Source: Promethearchaeota archaeon (lineage in GTDB: Archaea; Asgardarchaeota; Lokiarchaeia; Sigyniarchaeales; SOKP01). Taken from it: a stretch of 64,000 bases of DNA. The position numbers and the translations under genes were made by a program. The first letter of the stretch is position 1; each line of letters starts with the position of its first letter. The stretch spans positions 8,364 to 72,363 of the forward strand of contig JAEOSU010000048.1 of assembly GCA_016840165.1 (NCBI GenBank), given 5' to 3'. Under the pieces are notes generated by a model. The model was not told the DNA's origin. It searched no databases and was given only the letters and a program-made list of their open reading frames with translations. Positions 1 to 34,251 of the stretch are shown in pieces.

Positions 1-2281
1 ATCGCTGTTTCACAGGAGCAAATACAGTGAAAAAGTCTTTTTGTATTTTTGAAAGACCTTGAAATTTGATAATAATCTTATTTCCAGTAAACGTAGTGGC
101 GTATAGGGATCCAAAGTTATTCCCAAAACCTGAAAATAAAATAATGTCCCCGTTATTTAACTTGGAATCTAATTTAGAGGAATCTTTCACCCGTAAATAC
201 ATTCCTTTTTTGAGATCTGCCAAGGTTCTCACATTATGAATGTTAGAAAATGATTGAGTCCCAGTATAATGTTCATAAATATAATCGTATAGATTAGCCA
301 TAGGTTTCTTTTCAATTTTAAGTATTTCTCCCTTAATTCCTCTACGTGCAATAAGTAATGCTGCTATTGCGTGATCAACAAACCCCTTAGCGGTAACTTG
401 ATTTACTAATTCTCCTTTTTGAAGATGAAAAAGGGCTTCTTTTGTTGTCTTAAATTCATCAACCATGTAAATATCCGGCGTGGGTAATATATTGAGTTGA
501 TCAATTGTATCATCTTTATCTAATGAATCTCCGGTAATATTAAAATAATCGATTAAAAAATTGGCAATAAAAGAAGAACCAGGACCATTACCGATAAAAA
601 CTTTTTTAATTAAGTCTTTATCATTACCCAAAAAAAGATCTAATTCATATCTAATTTGCTCTTCAGAAACAGAACGAGATCTCTTGTCGTCGATACTTCT
701 TTTAAGATTCACATACCATAATGATGGTAAAGCACCTTGTTCGATTAGGCAAAAACCAAAGTGTCTAGTACCAGGGTCTATGGAAAGGATTTTATCTTCA
801 AAATCAAATCTGATTAAGCTAAAATCCGCTTGCCCATTCGTAAGTTTCATAATGGAATTAAAAAATGATTCAAAAGCATAATTTTTTACTTGCAAGAAGA
901 AAGTGTTTGACTTTGACTGATATAAAATATCGATATTGTATTTTTCAATTAGGCTAAAAAGAGCATTATGATTAGAAACTTTTACTATAACATCTTGATA
1001 AGGAATAATTTTGATTATTTTTACTTTTTCTATCGCTCGAGTGATTGCTTGGGCGATATCTCCTTCATTTTTCCCAGAATAAATGTCAATATGCAAACCA
1101 TCTAAATGAAAGGCATCATAAGCTACTGAGGCACCGAGAATGTCATATAATCTTGTAGCTTGGATTCCATCTCGATTTACGGTTAATTTATTTTTTATGC
1201 GCGGAACGATACGTACAGTAGCAGAATTAAAAGTAGCTTTCGTAGATTGATTGATGGTAATTATTCCTTTTAATTTTGATCCAACAATCTCAAAATCGAT
1301 TAAATCTTCTAATCTTTCTTTAAGAAGAGTAAATTGTAGGTCTCCTGTAGCCAGAATGGTAATTTCACTTTTTTTGTAATAATAATCAATATTAGGAATA
1401 ATTTTTTTTATAGATTCAAGCACGTCAATAGCCACCTTAAATTTAATAGGATCCGAAATGGAAATATAAAATTCCTTTCGAGGGACTATTTCCGCTAATG
1501 AATTTATAAGTTTTGGAGAAATTACCTTACCTTTATAGTATTTTGTTCCCAAGTCTATAGAAGACCCTATATTTAGTTGGATCTGAACGATATCTCCTTC
1601 TTGAGCTAGTTTTAATGACTCTCCTTTTAATGTAAATATATTTCTAATCTTAATCTTCTCATTGATCCAAGTATTATTCTTGATATGCCCTGAAAGGATT
1701 CCTACATATATTAGTTCTCCAAATCCTTTTTTATTGTGAAATCCAAGATTAATAAATGATAGATCATCTCCATTCTCTTCTTGTTTTCTAATTTGAATTG
1801 CTATCTTTTCAATCAACTTATCAATTCCAATCAGATTTTTTGAGGAGGTTTTTACAATTGAAGAAATGTGCAATTTTTCAAATTTTTTAATCTCTTTTTC
1901 AATTTTCTCGGAATTAGCATTTGGTAAATCCATTTTGGTTATTGTTAATAATACGGGCAAGTTTTTTTCTATAGCTTTTTCTATAAGCCAGTAAGTTCTC
2001 GCCTGAAATCCTTCAGAACCAGATACCACAAGAACTAATAGATCAGCAATTTCTAATCCTAAAGCAATTCCCCCTTTAAAATCAGCATGACCTGGGGAAT
2101 CTAAGAAATTCACCACGAGATCTTTCTTTGGAATCGGAAATTGAATTATCTTCAAGGATACTGTTGTACCATGATTTAATTCAAAATCTAAAATATCAGG
2201 AAATTTACCACATACTGCATGAATAAGGCTGGATTTACCATGTTGGGCGTGTCCTGCTATTAAAACGTTTAGTGTCCTCAT
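1..2281 (-). CDS. EF-G/EF-2-like translational GTPase fused to a C-terminal YqgF/Tex-like RNase H-fold nuclease domain (3' end at or beyond window edge)
   Basis: Manually translated from ATG at 2281; open for 760 codons to the window edge and not in the ORF track. G motifs: GHAQHGKSS, HGTT, DSPGH, TKMD, TSSK. EF-G-like domain III TGDLQFTLLKERL and domain V SIMKLTNGQADFSL. Then KILSIDPGTRHFG, FIGNGPGS, VDEFKTTKEA, VDHAIAALLIARR. Confidence 0.85.
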   Translation of the reverse strand, partial: MRTLNVLIAGHAQHGKSSLIHAVCGKFPDILDFELNHGTTVSLKIIQFPIPKKDLVVNFLDSPGHADFKGGIALGLEIADLLVLVVSGSEGFQARTYWLIEKAIEKNLPVLLTITKMDLPNANSEKIEKEIKKFEKLHISSIVKTSSKNLIGIDKLIEKIAIQIRKQEENGDDLSFINLGFHNKKGFGELIYVGILSGHIKNNTWINEKIKIRNIFTLKGESLKLAQEGDIVQIQLNIGSSIDLGTKYYKGKVISPKLINSLAEIVPRKEFYISISDPIKFKVAIDVLESIKKIIPNIDYYYKKSEITILATGDLQFTLLKERLEDLIDFEIVGSKLKGIITINQSTKATFNSATVRIVPRIKNKLTVNRDGIQATRLYDILGASVAYDAFHLDGLHIDIYSGKNEGDIAQAITRAIEKVKIIKIIPYQDVIVKVSNHNALFSLIEKYNIDILYQSKSNTFFLQVKNYAFESFFNSIMKLTNGQADFSLIRFDFEDKILSIDPGTRHFGFCLIEQGALPSLWYVNLKRSIDDKRSRSVSEEQIRYELDLFLGNDKDLIKKVFIGNGPGSSFIANFLIDYFNITGDSLDKDDTIDQLNILPTPDIYMVDEFKTTKEALFHLQKGELVNQVTAKGFVDHAIAALLIARRGIKGEILKIEKKPMANLYDYIYEHYTGTQSFSNIHNVRTLADLKKGMYLRVKDSSKLDSKLNNGDIILFSGFGNNFGSLYATTFTGNKIIIKFQGLSKIQKDFFTVFAPVKQR

Positions 2282-2291
2282 CTAAATCTCT

Positions 2292-2744
2292 TTATTCCCT
2301 TCTCTTTCCTTCTAGGCTTTCAAAGTAATCTAATACTGATTCTTTTATTTCAATCGCAGGAAAAATAAGTCTAGATTTATTTACATAATTTATTGCATCA
2401 GTCCAAGTCCAATCGGGATAATTCCTCATTAGCCAAGCTACAATAATACCACCACTCCTACTGATGCCCATTGCACAATGAATCAAAACACTCCCTTTAT
2501 GGATATTATCATCAATAAAATCTAAGATTTCTTGAATATAGTGGTGAGGAGGATACCAATCATCCGGAAAACCCCGATATAAATAATTAAATCCATCAGA
2601 AGTCGGATCATAAAGATCATCTTCCATCAAATTCACTATCGTTTTTATTTTCAATTCTTTGAATTTTTTAAAGTTTAAACGGGGCCAGTAAGCTCCAATA
2701 TAAAGATTCTCATGAACTTGATAAATTTGATCTAATTCTACCAA
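2292..2744 (-). CDS. Dual-specificity protein phosphatase (CX5R family)
   Basis: HCAMGISRSG active site, NLYIG N-terminal motif, FPDD general-acid loop. Confidence 0.9.
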   Translation of the reverse strand: MVELDQIYQVHENLYIGAYWPRLNFKKFKELKIKTIVNLMEDDLYDPTSDGFNYLYRGFPDDWYPPHHYIQEILDFIDDNIHKGSVLIHCAMGISRSGGIIVAWLMRNYPDWTWTDAINYVNKSRLIFPAIEIKESVLDYFESLEGKRRE

Positions 2745-2837: not shown

Positions 2838-3416
2838 CTAACCATTTTTATTGACTAATAAATGTAGCTTCTCTTTAAGAAATTGAACAATCTTTCTTTT
2901 GATTGGATTGTTAGAGCTTATAAGCGAAGTTATCACACCTATAAGTAAAACTATAAGAAATTGGTTGAATGTGTCGCAAACTCCAAATATACACTGATAA
3001 TATGGAAACTCTAAAAATGTCATTATACAAAAAATCCATAATGCATAGATGCAACTAGCTCCGAGCATAATTATAAGAGACACGTTTAATCTAAAGATGA
3101 TTATAAAGCAGGGAATAACCGTAACAAGGTGAAATAAGGCAAATATAATATTTAATTGAGAGAAATCATATATCATTACAAATAAATAATTAAAAGTTAA
3201 AGGTATAGATAAACTGTTTAATATCTTCTTATTATTAAGAAGTGTGTAATTGGAAATTAATAAAGCATAGACTGAAATTAATAAAATTACCGGTAAATTT
3301 ACAATTATCCCCCCAATTAAAAAAATAATTAGCATAATACTGCTTATGATGAAAAAAATAGTCTTTTTTCTGTTATTTTTATTCTCATTTAAGTTGTTTA
3401 GAAAGCGTTTTGTCAA
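2838..3416 (-). CDS. Hypothetical multi-pass membrane protein
   Basis: 192 aa with about 6 hydrophobic segments; 7 nt from the upstream gene. Confidence 0.6.
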   Translation of the reverse strand: MTKRFLNNLNENKNNRKKTIFFIISSIMLIIFLIGGIIVNLPVILLISVYALLISNYTLLNNKKILNSLSIPLTFNYLFVMIYDFSQLNIIFALFHLVTVIPCFIIIFRLNVSLIIMLGASCIYALWIFCIMTFLEFPYYQCIFGVCDTFNQFLIVLLIGVITSLISSNNPIKRKIVQFLKEKLHLLVNKNG

Positions 3417-4201: not shown

Positions 4202-4591
4202 CTAAGCTTTGCTTTTTTCAAGATTGCGGCTAGCAATAATATTTATCCCCATTTCTAAAATATTTTCAATTAGAATATCTCCCATCTTGATAGGCGCTTT
4301 TATTTGACTTTGAGCAATAATCTCTAATGCCTCATTCAGTTTGTCCTTTAGTAAGGGTTTATCTGTTCGTACAGGTATTAAGGGAAGTGTTCCATTTTCT
4401 ACTTTCATGGTAGTTGTGAGAATTCTTTTTGGTTCCCGAAACTCTTGTTCAGCATATTCTAAGCCTCTATTGCAGGTATATCCCTCAAAACTTACTTCCT
4501 TATCATCTTTTCCTATTACCTTTATTGAGCATCCTGTGGGGCATACAATACATCGTATAACTTTTATCACATTTTTACTGCTTTCAGCCAT
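4202..4591 (-). CDS. DUF1667 family CxxC metal-binding protein (small subunit of GlpA-like operon)
   Basis: CIVCPTGC...GYTCNRG...P.RILTTT pattern; third gene of the oxidoreductase operon. Confidence 0.85.
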   Translation of the reverse strand: MAESSKNVIKVIRCIVCPTGCSIKVIGKDDKEVSFEGYTCNRGLEYAEQEFREPKRILTTTMKVENGTLPLIPVRTDKPLLKDKLNEALEIIAQSQIKAPIKMGDILIENILEMGINIIASRNLEKSKA

Positions 4592-4593
4592 AA

Positions 4594-5901
4594 TTAAATC
4601 ACCTCATCTTCTTCGATTAATACCTCTAGGCGAGGAATCACTTCAATAAAAATATTATCCGTTTCAATTTTAGTCTCTAGTTTATCAAAGTTTATTTTTA
4701 ATTCAATCATTTCACTTGGAATGACATACACTTTCTTTCTTTTGTAGATAACGTGGTTGTCTTTATCTTTAATTTGAATTTGTACCCTTCTGTCTGGAAA
4801 TTTAACTCGGAAAGTAAAGATAATCTCCTTAGATAAATTTTCCTTATTGATAAAATCAGGTTTTACATAATTAACATTATCACCTGCAATACAATTTATT
4901 TTTCCTTTAGAGGAAATATCCTTACCATAACGAGTATTAATGTACTCAATAGCATTCATTCCAGCTCTTTTAGCTTCGGCACTGACTAAATCTACCAAAT
5001 CATGGACTTGTAAGACGTTTCCACAGGCAAAAATCCCTTCGATATTTGTCTCTAAATTATTGTCAACTATTGGTCCTCCATTATTAGATAGTTCTGCTCC
5101 CGCGTTTAATGTCAATTCATTTTCAGGAATTAAACCTACCGATAAAAGTAAGGTATCACATTCTATGAATTTTTCGGAACCTATGATTCTATCAAAATTT
5201 CTGTCCACTTTGCTTATAGTAACTCCCTGAACTCTGTCTTTTCCGTGAATTTTGGTGACCGTATAGCTTGTAATGAGGGGAATATCATAATCTTCAAGAC
5301 ATTGTACTTGATTTCTTAATAGACCGCTTACATAAGGTAAAATTTCAACAACTGCTTTTACTTCACATCCTTCCCATGTTAAACGCCTTGCCATTATCAT
5401 GCCAATATCTCCACTTCCAAGAATTACATAACTAGTTCCAGGAAGATAGCCTTCAATATTTACGAATCTCTGAGCCTGACCAGCTGTATAGATTCCTGCA
5501 GGTCGAAATCCAGGAATATTAATAGCGCCCCTTGTTCTTTCCCTACATCCCATCGCTAATATTATAGCTTTTGCTTGAATTTCAATTAAACCCTCTTTTT
5601 TGTTCACCGCATAGACTTTTTTCTCTTTTGTAATCTCAATAACCATAGTATCCAATAAATATGGAATTTTCAACTCATTCACCTGATTTATGAAGCGTTG
5701 TATATATTCTGGTCCAGTTAATTCTTCTTGAAATTCTTTAAGTCCAAATCCATTATGAATACATTGAAGCGTGATGCCTCCTAATTCTTTATCTCTTTCC
5801 AAGATAAGTACACTTATATCTGCCTTTTTTACTTCTATTGCTGACGCTAATCCAGCAGCTCCCGAACCAATTATGAGTACATCAGCTTTATATGATTTCA
5901 T
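4594..5901 (-). CDS. NAD(P)/FAD-dependent pyridine nucleotide-disulfide oxidoreductase
   Basis: GSGAAG, QCIHNGFG, AMGCRER, GSGDIG, GIFACGNVLQVHDLVD motifs; ATGA overlap with upstream gene. Confidence 0.9.
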   Translation of the reverse strand: MKSYKADVLIIGSGAAGLASAIEVKKADISVLILERDKELGGITLQCIHNGFGLKEFQEELTGPEYIQRFINQVNELKIPYLLDTMVIEITKEKKVYAVNKKEGLIEIQAKAIILAMGCRERTRGAINIPGFRPAGIYTAGQAQRFVNIEGYLPGTSYVILGSGDIGMIMARRLTWEGCEVKAVVEILPYVSGLLRNQVQCLEDYDIPLITSYTVTKIHGKDRVQGVTISKVDRNFDRIIGSEKFIECDTLLLSVGLIPENELTLNAGAELSNNGGPIVDNNLETNIEGIFACGNVLQVHDLVDLVSAEAKRAGMNAIEYINTRYGKDISSKGKINCIAGDNVNYVKPDFINKENLSKEIIFTFRVKFPDRRVQIQIKDKDNHVIYKRKKVYVIPSEMIELKINFDKLETKIETDNIFIEVIPRLEVLIEEDEVI

Positions 5902-7388
5902 TCAGTCTCACCTTTATTTTTATTTTCAATAAGCCGATCTTTTGTTTTTCCTACGAGAAAATTAGTATATTCGCCTCTTTTAGTAATCTCTTCAGGAGGA
6001 ATATATAATTCTCGCGATAATATTTCAATTACTCGCGGTCGACAGAAACCTCCTTGACACCTTCCCATTCCTGGCCTACATCGGAATTTTATTCCATCCA
6101 CAGTCGTCGCACCTACAGGGGCATGGATCGCATTTAAAATTTCCCTCTCGGGTATTGTTTCACATCTACAGATGATTCTTCCCCACGTAGGATCTTCTTT
6201 AATTTTTTTATCCAATTCTTTCTTTGAGAAATCTTTAAATCTTTCTGGTTTCGGTCGAATTGGATTATAATCCTCTTTAATTTTGAGCTCAACTCCTAAG
6301 AGTTTCAAAAATTCTTCAACTTTTTCAGCTATCGCAAAACAAGAAGTCAAACCAGGCGAAAGAATCCCTGCTACATTTATAAAACCATAGACATCGGTAT
6401 TATCGATAATATAGTCTCCAATTTTATCGGTGATACTATTATAAGGCACCGCTCTTAATCCAGCAAAGTTTTTGATTGATGCTTTTGTAGGTAGATTCGG
6501 TACTAACATACGTCCCCCTTCCAAAATTTCTTTTAACCCTGCCTCTGTAGTTGATATATCTTTTTTATCAGTAATATTTTGAGCATTTGGACCAACAAAA
6601 GTATTTCCATGGAGGGTTGGGCACACTAATATTCCTTTTGATACTTTTGTTGGAATAGGAAAAAGAATTTTATTCAAATGCATTGCATTTCGATCAAATA
6701 AAATATATTCTCCTTTTCTAGGCATGATATCAAAATAGTCTAATCCTACCATTCTTGAAATTCTAGCGGCATATAAACCAGCGGCGTTTATGATATTACG
6801 AGATTTAAATTCACTAGAACTTGTTTTAACTCTAAAAACATAGTTCTGCCTATTGATCCTCTTTACTTTTTCGTTCCGAAAAAAAGACACACCATTCATC
6901 GCTGCATTTTCAGCTAAGGCAAAAGTTAATTCGTACGGACTCACAAGTCCTGCAGTAGGTGCATGAAGAACCCCCACAACATCATCAGTAAGATTCGGCT
7001 CCATATACTTGATTTTTTCCTTATCTAAAATAAGTTCTAATCCTGGAACCCCATCTTCTATACCAAGTTTACGTTCTTCTTCAAGATGTTTTATCTGCTT
7101 GTCTTCTAAAGCAACAACAAAAGACCCATTTCGAACAAAAGGGAAATTAAGTTCTTCATATGCTTGTGTATACAATTTATTGCCCTGAATGCATAGATTT
7201 CGTCTTATATATTCCCTTGATGCGGCATATCCCGCATGAACTACTCCAGAATTAGCTTTTGTTGTTCCTGAAGCAATATCTGCGTCTTTTTCTAATAGAG
7301 CAATATTTATATCATATTTTGATAATGTTCTTGCGATGCAACAACCAGTTACTCCACCACCAATTATTAGGACGTCAAAAATCATCAT
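5898..7388 (-). CDS. FAD-dependent oxidoreductase, GlpA/LhgO-like, with C-terminal BFD-like [2Fe-2S] domain
   Basis: GGGVTG, TKANSGVVHAG, ICRCE...RPGMGRCQGGFC. Confidence 0.85.
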   Translation of the reverse strand: MMIFDVLIIGGGVTGCCIARTLSKYDINIALLEKDADIASGTTKANSGVVHAGYAASREYIRRNLCIQGNKLYTQAYEELNFPFVRNGSFVVALEDKQIKHLEEERKLGIEDGVPGLELILDKEKIKYMEPNLTDDVVGVLHAPTAGLVSPYELTFALAENAAMNGVSFFRNEKVKRINRQNYVFRVKTSSSEFKSRNIINAAGLYAARISRMVGLDYFDIMPRKGEYILFDRNAMHLNKILFPIPTKVSKGILVCPTLHGNTFVGPNAQNITDKKDISTTEAGLKEILEGGRMLVPNLPTKASIKNFAGLRAVPYNSITDKIGDYIIDNTDVYGFINVAGILSPGLTSCFAIAEKVEEFLKLLGVELKIKEDYNPIRPKPERFKDFSKKELDKKIKEDPTWGRIICRCETIPEREILNAIHAPVGATTVDGIKFRCRPGMGRCQGGFCRPRVIEILSRELYIPPEEITKRGEYTNFLVGKTKDRLIENKNKGETE

Positions 7389-31995: not shown

Positions 31996-34251
31996 ATGAG
32001 TTTAAAAGAATACACCAAAGAAATATTCACGAGATATGGTTTTACTGAAGAGCAGATTTTAGTCTATTTAGTATATCTAAGAGTGCCAAGGGCGACTTCA
32101 TCAGAAGTATACCTTCATTTAATGGAAGATCATGAAGAGTTGACTTATGAAAAAGTACTAGAAATTACCGATTGGCTGGTGGAAAAAGGTTTTCTTAAGA
32201 AAATCCCTGGTATTGTGGATCGATTTATACCTTTAGAGCCATTCTTTGAATTATATACCAGTGAATCTGAAATTTTTCGCAATGAAATTGCCAAAATTAA
32301 AGATACGATATTGGCAGATCAATCAAAACGTTTTGAAAAGCTAGAGTCTATTCAAGATAAGAGTATAGATGAGGTGTCAGTTGCCGTTGATAGTCAGTTA
32401 AAATCATTTTTTGAAGATTCTGACACAAAAAGCAATAATAAACGAGATAGAATTAGTAATGCTAGAAATCGGTTTACAGACACCGCAAAAACCTTAGAAG
32501 AAAATCTTCATAAGATCTCTGATACTATGAATTCCGATTTGAAACAATATAATGATACACAAGTTAAGGAAAATGAATCGACTATAATGAAGACCAAGGA
32601 AGACTTAACCAATCTTATCGCTGAACTTTTAAATGATTTTTCCAAACGTGTTGAAGATTTAGAAAAGGAATTAAAAAATGAACTGGATGAGCATGTAGAG
32701 CGACATAAAAATATCTCCAATGATTTAAAACCGAGAATGGAACAAATCTTAGAGAAGTATTTAGAAAGAATGGATAAAATCATAACTGACCTAAAAGAAA
32801 GGATTTCAAACCTTTTAAAAGAACATTTAACCCATCTTAAACATACTACAGATACTTTACAGACCAATCTGAAATCTGTCGTTGATGATAGACATCGATT
32901 ATTAACTGATCAATCCAACGAGTTCAAAACGATGACTCTCACTTTAATTGACAACCTCTTAGAGCATGCGAATCGTTTTACTGATTTCTCAGCCGATATG
33001 GCTAAGAAAGGGTTCTTCTGGTTAGGTAAGAAGAAAAAGTATAAAGCACGACACGAAACCACTATTCAAAACATCTTGAAATATACTGAACCTATGAAAG
33101 AGGACTTTATCAAAGTCACAGAAGAATACATTAGCAATACACGAAATACTGCTGATAGTTTGAAGGGAGAGGTGACTGATATTATGAACAAGGAGAATGA
33201 TAATGTAGTGACCGAAACGAATGAATTAGATAACAAAGCACAAGAAACTATTAACGTGCAATTGGAAACTTTAGCAACAGATATGGCAGGAGAAATCGAT
33301 ACCACCCTACAGAGTGGCGTAAAAGATTGTTCCGATACAACCATCAAATTAAAAGATTCTTTAGAAACATCCCTAAAGCAACATCACAGGGAGTATGGAG
33401 ATGCAATCAATACACATAAAGAAGCAAGTCTTAAGCATTATACTGAATTTGATAATGATGTAAAGCGTTTCAATGAAAATTGGACACGTGAAGTTGATAA
33501 TAAGTTTATGGGGGGCAAACGAGATGCAACCGAGAAAATAACCTCAGAGATTAGTCTTTTTGGTGATGAAACTGCCGATTTGGACAGAAATCTCACTGAA
33601 ATGCTCAGCGATCATAAGTCAAAATATGAGGAAAATGCAAAAACCCTTCAGAATAGCTTATCTAATACTACCCGCGATACCACCCAAAATATTAAGGATG
33701 CAATTGCTGATTTTACGCTTCAGTTCATGAATTCTATCGACGATTCGACCGAGTTAGCTGAAAATAACGAGGAAAAATTAAAAGATATCTATAATGCCGC
33801 ATCAAGTATCCCAGAAATTAGTGAAATTACCACTTGGCAGATTATTGGTAGAGATGCATTAGTTGCAGCTATTAAGGATGCGATTTTCCGCGTTAAATCT
33901 TCAATAATCATAGTTATGCCTGTTGTGATTCCAGAAGTTCTACAAGTTATAAGTGAATATGCGTACCAAAAGAAAGCAGTACGATTCCTTTTAACAGCTT
34001 CATGGGAAATGGGCCAATATGGTCCTATTATCCAAAAGATGATGCAACTTGGCAATATTCAATTTCGACAGTTATCAACGAAAGGTGAATTTTTTGCGCT
34101 CACAAGAGATGCTGAGGAAGTTATTATTGGTCCTCACACTACAAATGAAAAAGAGATGATTAGTGTAATCTCTAATCAAGAAGCTTACGCAAAGTTATAC
34201 AGCCAATTTATAGGTCCTATCTTTCAAGCTAACTCAAGACCTATTAAATAA
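31996..34251 (+). CDS. TrmB-like wHTH + long coiled coil + TrmB/PLD-like C-terminal domain
   Basis: GFTEEQILVYLVYL...LVEKGFL...F.PL.P N-terminus; ~500 aa charged helical region; IIGRDA...SSIII...RDAEEVII C-domain. Confidence 0.7.
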   Translation: MSLKEYTKEIFTRYGFTEEQILVYLVYLRVPRATSSEVYLHLMEDHEELTYEKVLEITDWLVEKGFLKKIPGIVDRFIPLEPFFELYTSESEIFRNEIAKIKDTILADQSKRFEKLESIQDKSIDEVSVAVDSQLKSFFEDSDTKSNNKRDRISNARNRFTDTAKTLEENLHKISDTMNSDLKQYNDTQVKENESTIMKTKEDLTNLIAELLNDFSKRVEDLEKELKNELDEHVERHKNISNDLKPRMEQILEKYLERMDKIITDLKERISNLLKEHLTHLKHTTDTLQTNLKSVVDDRHRLLTDQSNEFKTMTLTLIDNLLEHANRFTDFSADMAKKGFFWLGKKKKYKARHETTIQNILKYTEPMKEDFIKVTEEYISNTRNTADSLKGEVTDIMNKENDNVVTETNELDNKAQETINVQLETLATDMAGEIDTTLQSGVKDCSDTTIKLKDSLETSLKQHHREYGDAINTHKEASLKHYTEFDNDVKRFNENWTREVDNKFMGGKRDATEKITSEISLFGDETADLDRNLTEMLSDHKSKYEENAKTLQNSLSNTTRDTTQNIKDAIADFTLQFMNSIDDSTELAENNEEKLKDIYNAASSIPEISEITTWQIIGRDALVAAIKDAIFRVKSSIIIVMPVVIPEVLQVISEYAYQKKAVRFLLTASWEMGQYGPIIQKMMQLGNIQFRQLSTKGEFFALTRDAEEVIIGPHTTNEKEMISVISNQEAYAKLYSQFIGPIFQANSRPIK

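Follow-up and report, generated by a model that had tools for sequence, protein, structure and literature searches.

Known EF2-family GTPases and YqgF nucleases

To our knowledge, all characterised GTPases of the EF2 family work on the ribosome in a mechanical way, in translocation, back-translocation, drug displacement, recycling or assembly checks, and we know of none with an enzyme domain able to cut RNA. LepA (EF4) and BipA carry a family-specific C-terminal domain after domain V. Described here is a gene that joins an EF-G-like GTPase to a YqgF/RuvX-type nuclease, found in a 64,000-nucleotide (nt) stretch of DNA from a Promethearchaeota archaeon (hereafter the window; contig C27, positions 8364-72363, in a genome of 3.6 Mb and 30 % GC). 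The fusion is confirmed as real and conserved.

YqgF proteins have a specific active site: a carboxylate that RuvC has on beta4 has moved to beta5, and just three carboxylates are left (PMC3985635, PMC9601230). In the Deinococcus radiodurans protein (DrYqgF), mutations have shown that D22, E106 and D122 are required for Mn2+-dependent RNase activity (PMC9601230). Tex, by comparison, lacks the third carboxylate (PMC3985635). The Escherichia coli protein (EcYqgF) reportedly processes pre-16S rRNA only within 70S ribosomes, according to work cited in PMC9601230.

The fusion protein resembles aEF-2 and EF-G in the order of its domains (G-II-III, followed by probable IV and V), in their folds and in having all GTPase motifs, including the switch-II histidine. 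It differs from both in lacking G' and G'', in a domain IV of about 90 rather than 190 amino acids (aa) with a SGKNE(D/E)D motif of its own, and in a 265-aa extension of nuclease plus barrel; it is also dispensable and lies outside both Asgard aEF-2 lineages. The G domain is without an insert in LepA and BipA as well (PMC4342817). LepA and TetO/TetM provide the best sequence matches, LepA for the G domain and TetO/TetM for domains II-III. However, the C-terminal domains of LepA and BipA are not nucleases, LepA, BipA and TetM/TetO are bacterial or organellar, and the fusion family is not nested with LepA or BipA.

On the nuclease side, YqgF/RuvX proteins (D. radiodurans, 7w89; E. coli, 1nmn) have the same fold (Z 10.3-11.5) and the same relocated active site. 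They are standalone proteins of about 140 aa, whereas the domain described here sits in an archaeal GTPase of 760 aa and has an extra insert before beta5, which varies in length up to about 25 aa. Its motif DE(R/F)x(S/T)(S/T)xEA is shared with the bacterial YqgF consensus. The succession of a YqgF domain, a short helical segment and a small barrel also loosely parallels the YqgF-HhH-S1 arrangement of Tex and Spt6, and whole Tex proteins align with residues 1-264 of a model of the C-terminal part at a template modelling (TM) score of 0.49-0.50 in the Atlas search. Unlike these proteins, the fusion protein has no Pfam matches to Tex_N, Tex_YqgF, HHH or S1, and it keeps the third carboxylate.

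A complete and conserved fusion gene

The gene was recognised in a preliminary description as a minus-strand open reading frame of at least 760 codons. It is present as described, and extending the frame into the contig completes it: the frame is closed by a stop codon at C27 8362-8364, with its first base, read on the minus strand, at window position 1, and the coding sequence at window 2-2281 specifies exactly 760 aa. Every motif quoted earlier was recovered at its residues. The GTPase motifs are GHAQHGKSS (10-18), ELNHGTT (34-40), DSPGH (61-65), TKMD (115-118) and TSSK (145-148), followed by TGDLQFTLLKERL (312-324) and AFHLDGLHIDIYSG (390-403). Further on come KILSIDPGTRHFG (497-509), FIGNGPGS (562-569), YMVDEFKTTKEA (605-616) and VDHAIAALLIARR (635-647). 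Taken together, the motif matches are far beyond chance.

It is practically inconceivable that the fusion is an artefact of assembly or gene calling that joins two separate genes. All that could be found in favour of such an origin is that the gene is in two pieces in a few genomes (on two contigs in G150; with an internal TGA in G164). The artefact reading is refuted by uninterrupted frames of 760-795 aa in more than 30 independently assembled genomes, by about 95 protein clusters and by a junction between domain V and the YqgF domain that is continuously conserved in the alignment. The only short library match that was looked up, P0125, also fails to support it, as this is a contig-end fragment 88 nt from the end.

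In G164 (C29:1620-3055), an in-frame TGA splits the fusion gene into two neighbouring pieces, which could reflect a pseudogene, a frameshift or a sequencing error.

A YqgF/RuvX-type nuclease domain

The C-terminal part was modelled separately (residues 496-760; mean predicted local distance difference test score, pLDDT, 73.9), and Foldseek matched this model to RNase H-fold proteins. The VIA comparison, which is independent of Foldseek, placed the YqgF domain of Tex first (Z 13.3, root-mean-square deviation (rmsd) 3.0, 129 aa, 19 % identity), followed by DrYqgF (Z 11.5, rmsd 2.5, 107 aa), RuvC (Z 11.3), MtRuvX (10.6), BsYqgF (10.5) and EcYqgF (10.3). Searching the Atlas with the same model returned RuvX and Tex clusters, with a TM-score of 0.73 by target for a RuvX cluster. 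At the sequence level, Pfam RuvX (PF03652; gathering cut-off 29.2 bits) is matched over nearly the whole profile by the orthologues P0095 (33.2 bits), P0123 (31.1), P0121 (30.7) and P0122 (29.2, exactly at the cut-off); 11 of 25 family members have a match at E<0.1. Sequence searches of the PDB with the C-terminal part gave nothing significant; the nearest were RuvC at E 0.9 with a profile and RuvC at E 0.054 with the YqgF region of P0095.

The predicted active site is intact. D502 on beta1, E609 at the end of beta5 and D636 on the last helix form an Asp/Glu/Asp triad that is invariant in 14 sequences reaching down to 34 % identity, as are G564, G566 and G568 after beta4, E615-A616 and H637. 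No aligned member has an acidic residue on or after beta4 (FIGNGPGS). The domain thus shows both the fold and the three-carboxylate arrangement of YqgF/RuvX. RuvC is marked by a catalytic glutamate at the end of beta4 and a fourth carboxylate; that glutamate is absent here, and the profile match to RuvC in sequence is not significant (E 0.9). Judged from its conserved residues, the nuclease domain is apparently active.

These results bear out the earlier proposal of an RNase H fold with its acidic candidates retained, since Foldseek, VIA and the Atlas agree on the fold and the triad is invariant. The accompanying label, YqgF/Tex-type, needs to be narrowed. The YqgF part stands, but the domain is RuvX-type rather than Tex-type, because it keeps the third carboxylate that is missing in Tex and its sole Pfam match is RuvX. 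Searching the whole genome of the window's organism with Pfam RuvX gave no match, the fusion gene included; as even the fusion gene was missed, this says little about the absence of a standalone YqgF.

Behind the nuclease lies a feature that the preliminary description did not include, a small C-terminal barrel of five strands with a helix between strands 4 and 5 and a net charge of +8 (family median +7). It has no Pfam match in six members and no feature match in the Atlas. Both the integrase chains of core plus SH3 found by Foldseek and the whole Tex proteins of the Atlas align loosely over nuclease and barrel. In the model, the order of strands and helix looks more SH3-like than S1/OB-like, and a basic barrel beside a nuclease would fit nucleic-acid binding.

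An EF-G/EF-2-like GTPase body

The N-terminal part is a translational GTPase domain. Pfam GTP_EFTU matches residues 2-161 at 88 bits against a cut-off of 26.5, and the G1-G5 motifs, with DxxGH, are all present, which places the protein in the translational GTPase superfamily. NCBIfam gives partial matches to the G domain only, the best being LepA (85 bits), followed by IF-2, SelB, Tet, TypA and RF3. In a 25-sequence family alignment that spans identities down to 34 %, the invariant residues are G15, K16, S17, T40, D61, G64, H65, T115, K116, D118, T145 and S146. His65 of DSPGH is the catalytic histidine of switch II. At 168 aa, the domain has no G' or G'' insert, in agreement with what had first been read from the sequence.

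An AlphaFold2 model of the full-length protein, built from a 25-sequence alignment (pLDDT 69.7, predicted TM-score 0.48), was matched in Foldseek to archaeal EF-2, EF-G, LepA, TetM and Snu114, over almost the entire length of those proteins (best E 4.5e-26, about 640-750 columns). The best VIA match is the aEF-2 of Methanoperedens (6u43), with Z 31.1 and an rmsd of 3.5 Å over 422 residues (model 1-468 against chain 14-648). By the domain boundaries of PhoEF-2 (III, 387-466; IV, 467-624 and 701-735; V, 625-700; PMC5887453), the alignment extends from G through II, III and the main segment of IV into the beginning of V. Of the folds expected of the N-terminal part, Foldseek returned those of EF-2, EF-G and TetM, and VIA those of EF-2 and EF-G.

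Sequence profiles add to this for domains II and III. A profile of residues 170-495 matches domains II-III of TetO/TetM at E 1e-5, and Pfam EF-G_D2 is found in the orthologue P0127 (31.4 bits, cut-off 27). Against a profile of Asgard aEF-2, domain III aligns in hhalign with a probability of 90 % (P 1.7e-6; reversed control P 0.71). Domains III-V are collinear with the same profile over 212 columns (82 %, P 1e-5), and column-reversed controls gave P 0.11-0.71. The protein thus has the domain II barrel followed by an EF-G-type domain III that marks the EF2 family. A single-sequence Pfam scan of residues 165-500 found no family even at E 10, and neither EFG_IV nor EFG_C of Pfam matches the fusion protein.

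Domain IV has about half its usual length. At the position of the aEF-2 diphthamide loop, a family-specific, near-invariant SGKNE(D/E)DIAQA is found, so that HEDPRH of aEF-2 is aligned to SGKNEG of the fusion protein. VIA alignments with aEF-2 and EF-G traverse the main segment of this domain and reach model residues 425-468; those with ribosome-bound EF-G stop at 425. The region after it has a beta-alpha-beta-beta-alpha order that fits domain V, but it is poorly modelled (pLDDT 36-68). The EF-G order of domains II to V proposed at the outset therefore holds to different degrees: domain III is found by sequence and by fold, domain IV by fold only, and domain V weakly by sequence. Overall, the evidence supports residues 1-494 as a five-domain GTPase body of the EF-G/EF-2 class without a G' insert.

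Family extent and phylogenetic position

A word-indexed search identified about 95 clusters of full-length homologues (735-786 aa, 55-83 % identity), all of which share the whole architecture. They are named only "GTP-binding protein" and are assigned to Lokiarchaeota/Promethearchaeia, with a few at 34 % identity labelled Asgardarchaeia. Across the phylum, a profile search found the gene in 36 of 400 genomes, 33 of them among the 134 genomes of a single family, so the architecture sought in other Asgard archaea does recur. A profile without the G domain (residues 170-760) was also scored against 1.84 billion representative proteins and retrieved just 15. Seven are full-length clusters with this architecture, and the rest are fragments, apart from one EF-G-like protein, unrelated to the family, that matches through domains II-III. 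With so few matches, the part outside the G domain has no detectable relatives beyond a family in which it is always fused. The family is closed, small, always fused and nearly confined to one family of Lokiarchaeia-type Asgard archaea.

The fusion protein is not the organism's aEF-2. Its own genome encodes a canonical aEF-2 on contig 1, together with aEF-1alpha and aIF5B. Two aEF-2 paralogues have been published for Asgard archaea (PMC6143161); most relatives have two, and only one was found in this genome. The fusion protein has none of the features that define aEF-2, which are a G' domain, a full-size domain IV with the diphthamide histidine and a place in the aEF-2 clade.

The aEF-2 gene of this genome (G000, contig C1 7929-10019, plus strand) is an open frame of 697 aa, and a P-loop was not detected in it. 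In relatives, aEF-2 has about 730-755 aa and a P-loop; the N-terminus in this genome may lie in another frame, or the assembly may contain an error.

The position of the family was assessed in a tree of the G domain and domain II (299 columns), which leaves out SelB, eIF2-gamma, RF3, Tet and eukaryotic sequences and has long branches and limited sampling. In this tree the family is monophyletic (97/96) and falls outside a clade (97/95) comprising the two aEF-2 lineages together with LepA, BipA and EF-G-like proteins. Its grouping with this EF2-family clade, to the exclusion of aEF-1alpha and IF2/aIF5B, is recovered at 91/85, below the confidence threshold of 95/80. A position outside both aEF-2 lineages indicates a separate, deep lineage of the EF2 class rather than a recent duplicate of aEF-2. 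The distinction from aEF-2 and SelB drawn in the preliminary description agrees with the presence of a separate aEF-2 in the genome and with the tree, although SelB is not among the sequences of that tree.

Full-text literature searches found no paper describing such a GTPase-YqgF fusion, in line with the initial impression that no EF-G-family protein of this kind had been described. The survey of translational GTPases (PMC4342817) does not contain the word nuclease, the survey of the RNase H superfamily (PMC3985635) does not contain the word GTPase, and the paper on Asgard EF-2 (PMC6143161) does not mention a nuclease.

Distribution and locus within the genus

Within the window's genus, the gene is present in 10 of the 41 other genomes (11 of 42 including the window's), a result with which a second query agrees. 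Many of the genomes without it are 98-100 % complete. Its surroundings are far more constant. The genes on either side are near-universal in the genus: a dual-specificity phosphatase (DSP) gene upstream (40 of 41 genomes) and, downstream, a gene for a zinc-ribbon protein (36 of 41), which in the window's organism encodes 113 aa (contig C27 7934-8275, minus strand). Wherever a carrier yielded both flanking genes, the fusion gene sits directly between the two; in one carrier the contig ends inside the fusion gene. In 41 genomes including the window's, this slot is occupied by the fusion gene in 11, by a conserved gene for a protein of about 95 aa with two transmembrane (TM) segments in 19, and by nothing in 11. 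G235 has both inserts, in the order DSP-fusion-TM-Zn. The gap was 90-144 bp at the four empty sites that were measured, and no remnant of the fusion gene was detected with tblastn at 12 examined empty sites (all E > 0.4).

In a tree of the flanking genes, the slot states cluster by lineage, with carriers in at least three positions (a minimum of three changes, on a weak backbone). The tree of the fusion gene is broadly congruent with it, except for one genome. In other genera, the DSP neighbour is kept at 4 of 11 loci and the zinc-ribbon neighbour at 4 of 11. An old arrangement of four genes, followed by clean losses in individual clades, would account for this most simply. Clean absence from a conserved locus, with no remnant, indicates that the fusion gene is dispensable. 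Such a clean presence or absence at a single locus, differing between species, allows a direct comparison of those with and without the gene.

The discordant genome is that of locus L071 (G271:C3:115800-119250), where the fusion gene groups with the window's trio (96 % in the Shimodaira-Hasegawa-like approximate likelihood ratio test) and the flanks fall with a different clade of carriers (99/97), possibly through recombination or as a long-branch artefact.

The DSP phosphatase was considered as a dedicated partner and rejected, as its gene occurs almost throughout the genus (40 of 41 genomes) and stays in place when the fusion gene is missing. It is a conserved flank that is independent of the fusion gene. 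No defence-system model of PADLOC matches the fusion protein or its two neighbours.

Proposed mechanism and alternative explanations

The reading that we favour, and hold to be slightly likelier than all others combined, is that of a ribosome-docking EF-G-like factor that brings a YqgF nuclease to ribosome-bound RNA under GTP control, in an accessory role. The architecture, the intactness and strong conservation of both catalytic centres, the separate position in the tree and the dispensability are shown by the data; that the protein binds the ribosome and cuts RNA, and with what target and role in the cell, we infer along the following lines. Bound to GTP, the EF-G-like body would dock at the factor-binding site of the ribosome, and there the sarcin-ricin loop would activate the invariant switch-II histidine as in other translational GTPases. 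Docking would put the nuclease and the basic barrel beside ribosome-bound mRNA, tRNA or rRNA, which could then be cut, and the factor would be released on GTP hydrolysis. The protein is an accessory factor and not a translocase. A role in rRNA maturation, one of those initially suggested, is made unlikely, if meant as essential, by the absence of the gene from 30 of the 41 other genomes of the genus, many of them near-complete. Since the gene is dispensable, a conditional role is likelier than essential rRNA maturation; examples might be the removal or inactivation of ribosome complexes that have stalled or are unwanted, a stress response or conflict.

Several observations weigh against this reading. 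The window protein itself matches Pfam RuvX only partially and below the cut-off (13.5 bits, E 0.095). Domain IV taken alone is not significant against Asgard aEF-2 in hhalign (P 0.065), and the placement of residues 424-486 on domain V of aEF-2 is weak (P 0.0075; 0.0018 for IV and V together; reversed controls 0.23-0.35). Confidence in the full-length model is moderate, so that the position of the nuclease relative to the GTPase body is not fixed by it. Roughly three in four genomes of the genus lack the gene, which argues against any core role. Snu114, an EF-2 paralogue that acts off the ribosome, equals aEF-2 as a match to the fold (Z about 30). Without G', the family also lacks the stalk groove of aEF-2; aIF5B and aEF-1alpha, which have no G' either, bind the stalk elsewhere. 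In aEF-2, the groove for the aP1 stalk lies between G and G' (PMC5887453). Finally, YqgF proteins have also been reported to cut DNA junctions (PMC9601230, PMC11466669).

The last point leads to a GTP-regulated nuclease or resolvase of branched DNA, acting outside translation in the manner of RuvX-like Holliday-junction processing. We consider this quite improbable, and we know of no EF-G-class GTPase that acts on DNA. In its favour, the Pfam domain is named Holliday junction resolvase, the RuvX proteins of mycobacteria and Helicobacter pylori cut junctions (PMC9601230, PMC11466669), and RuvC follows closely behind YqgF by fold (Z 11.3). Yet the beta4 glutamate of RuvC is absent, no DNA-repair genes are linked to the locus, and DrYqgF and EcYqgF are without resolvase activity (PMC9601230). 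An off-ribosome role could also involve RNA, as in a GTP-driven RNA-processing or ribonucleoprotein-remodelling enzyme comparable to Snu114 in the spliceosome. Snu114 chains show the highest identities to the model (up to 22 %; Z 29-30, rmsd 4-5 Å), the stalk site on G' is missing, and the family branches outside the classical EF2-family clade. Nevertheless, Snu114, aEF-2 and EF-G lie within one unit of each other in Z, the switch-II histidine and the full motif set of translational GTPases are invariant, and no genes of a partner ribonucleoprotein are linked to the locus, so we see this role as unlikely.

About as unlikely, in our judgement, is a ribosome factor that does not cut at all, in which YqgF and barrel would do no more than bind RNA or provide an anchor, much as in Tex and Spt6, and the protein would remodel or protect ribosomes like TetM, BipA or LepA. 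Tex is the top structural match of the C-terminal module and also aligns loosely with it as a whole protein, no nuclease activity had been shown for Tex as of PMC3985635, and EF2-family paralogues typically displace rather than catalyse (PMC4342817). On the other hand, none of the three YqgF carboxylates varies in sequences down to 34 % identity, the third being the one missing in Tex (PMC3985635); Pfam matches are to RuvX, with none to Tex_YqgF; and DrYqgF, which shares the triad, has RNase activity (PMC9601230). The invariant triad, the complete set of translational GTPase motifs and the absence of a RuvC-type site place these explanations below that of a ribosome-docking factor with a YqgF nuclease.

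If the ribosome-docking explanation is correct, it would mean that RNA cleavage is coupled in a new way to recognition of the ribosome timed by a GTPase, in the archaeal lineage nearest to eukaryotes, and would provide a natural covalent link to the ribosome for YqgF, whose substrate is debated. It is more tentative, and in our estimate somewhat short of an even chance, that the family forms a new functional class, in which an EF-G-shaped factor carries its own catalytic effector, docks in the GTP state and cleaves ribosome-bound RNA through YqgF. Such a class would be an archaeal functional counterpart of RelE, Cue2 and SmrB, delivered and timed by an elongation-factor chassis.

Feature coordinates and further genes in the window

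Table 1. Position of the fusion gene, its domains and the upstream flanking gene in the window.
Feature	Residues	Window position	Strand	Basis or remark
EF-G-like GTPase-YqgF nuclease fusion gene		1..2281 (coding 2-2281)	-	Stop spans window base 1 and the two preceding bases
G domain	1-168	1778..2281	-	Pfam GTP_EFTU; P-loop GHAQHGKSS, switch I T40, switch II DSPGH, TKMD, TSSK
Domain II beta-barrel	172-256	1514..1768	-	Secondary structure of the model; TetO/TetM profile match; EF-G_D2 in an orthologue
Domain III (beta-alpha-beta-beta-alpha-beta)	266-338	1268..1486	-	hhalign; TetM/TetO and RF3 alignments
Shortened domain IV	339-427	1001..1267	-	VIA fold alignment; motif conservation
Domain V-like region (PxQD..V.V ... 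F.xFFNSLMK.S.G.A)	428-494	800..1000	-	Weak hhalign match; collinear II-V alignment
YqgF/RuvX-type RNase H-fold domain	496-655	317..796	-	VIA, Foldseek, Atlas; Pfam in orthologues; triad
Short helical linker	656-690	212..316	-	Low model confidence
Basic beta-barrel	691-760	2..211	-	Strand pattern, charge
DSP (dual-specificity, Cys-type) phosphatase gene		2292..2744	-	Pfam DSPc 62.2 bits; upstream neighbour, 10 nt before the fusion ATG

Further along the window, a 751-aa protein (31996-34251, plus strand) has only apolipoprotein-like Pfam matches of the coiled-coil type. A match to EFG_C at 33085-33213 (E 0.3) lies inside this protein and was dismissed as chance. Upstream of the DSP gene are two membrane-protein genes on the minus strand, of which the one at 3424-4077 matches membrane methyltransferases of the PEMT/ICMT type (Pfam, 37 and 35 bits) and the one at 2838-3416 has no family. 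Beyond them, three tightly packed genes of 129, 435 and 496 aa occupy 4202-7388 (minus strand); with their N-terminal GxGxxG dinucleotide-binding motifs, the 435- and 496-aa genes look like a cluster of FAD-dependent oxidoreductases.

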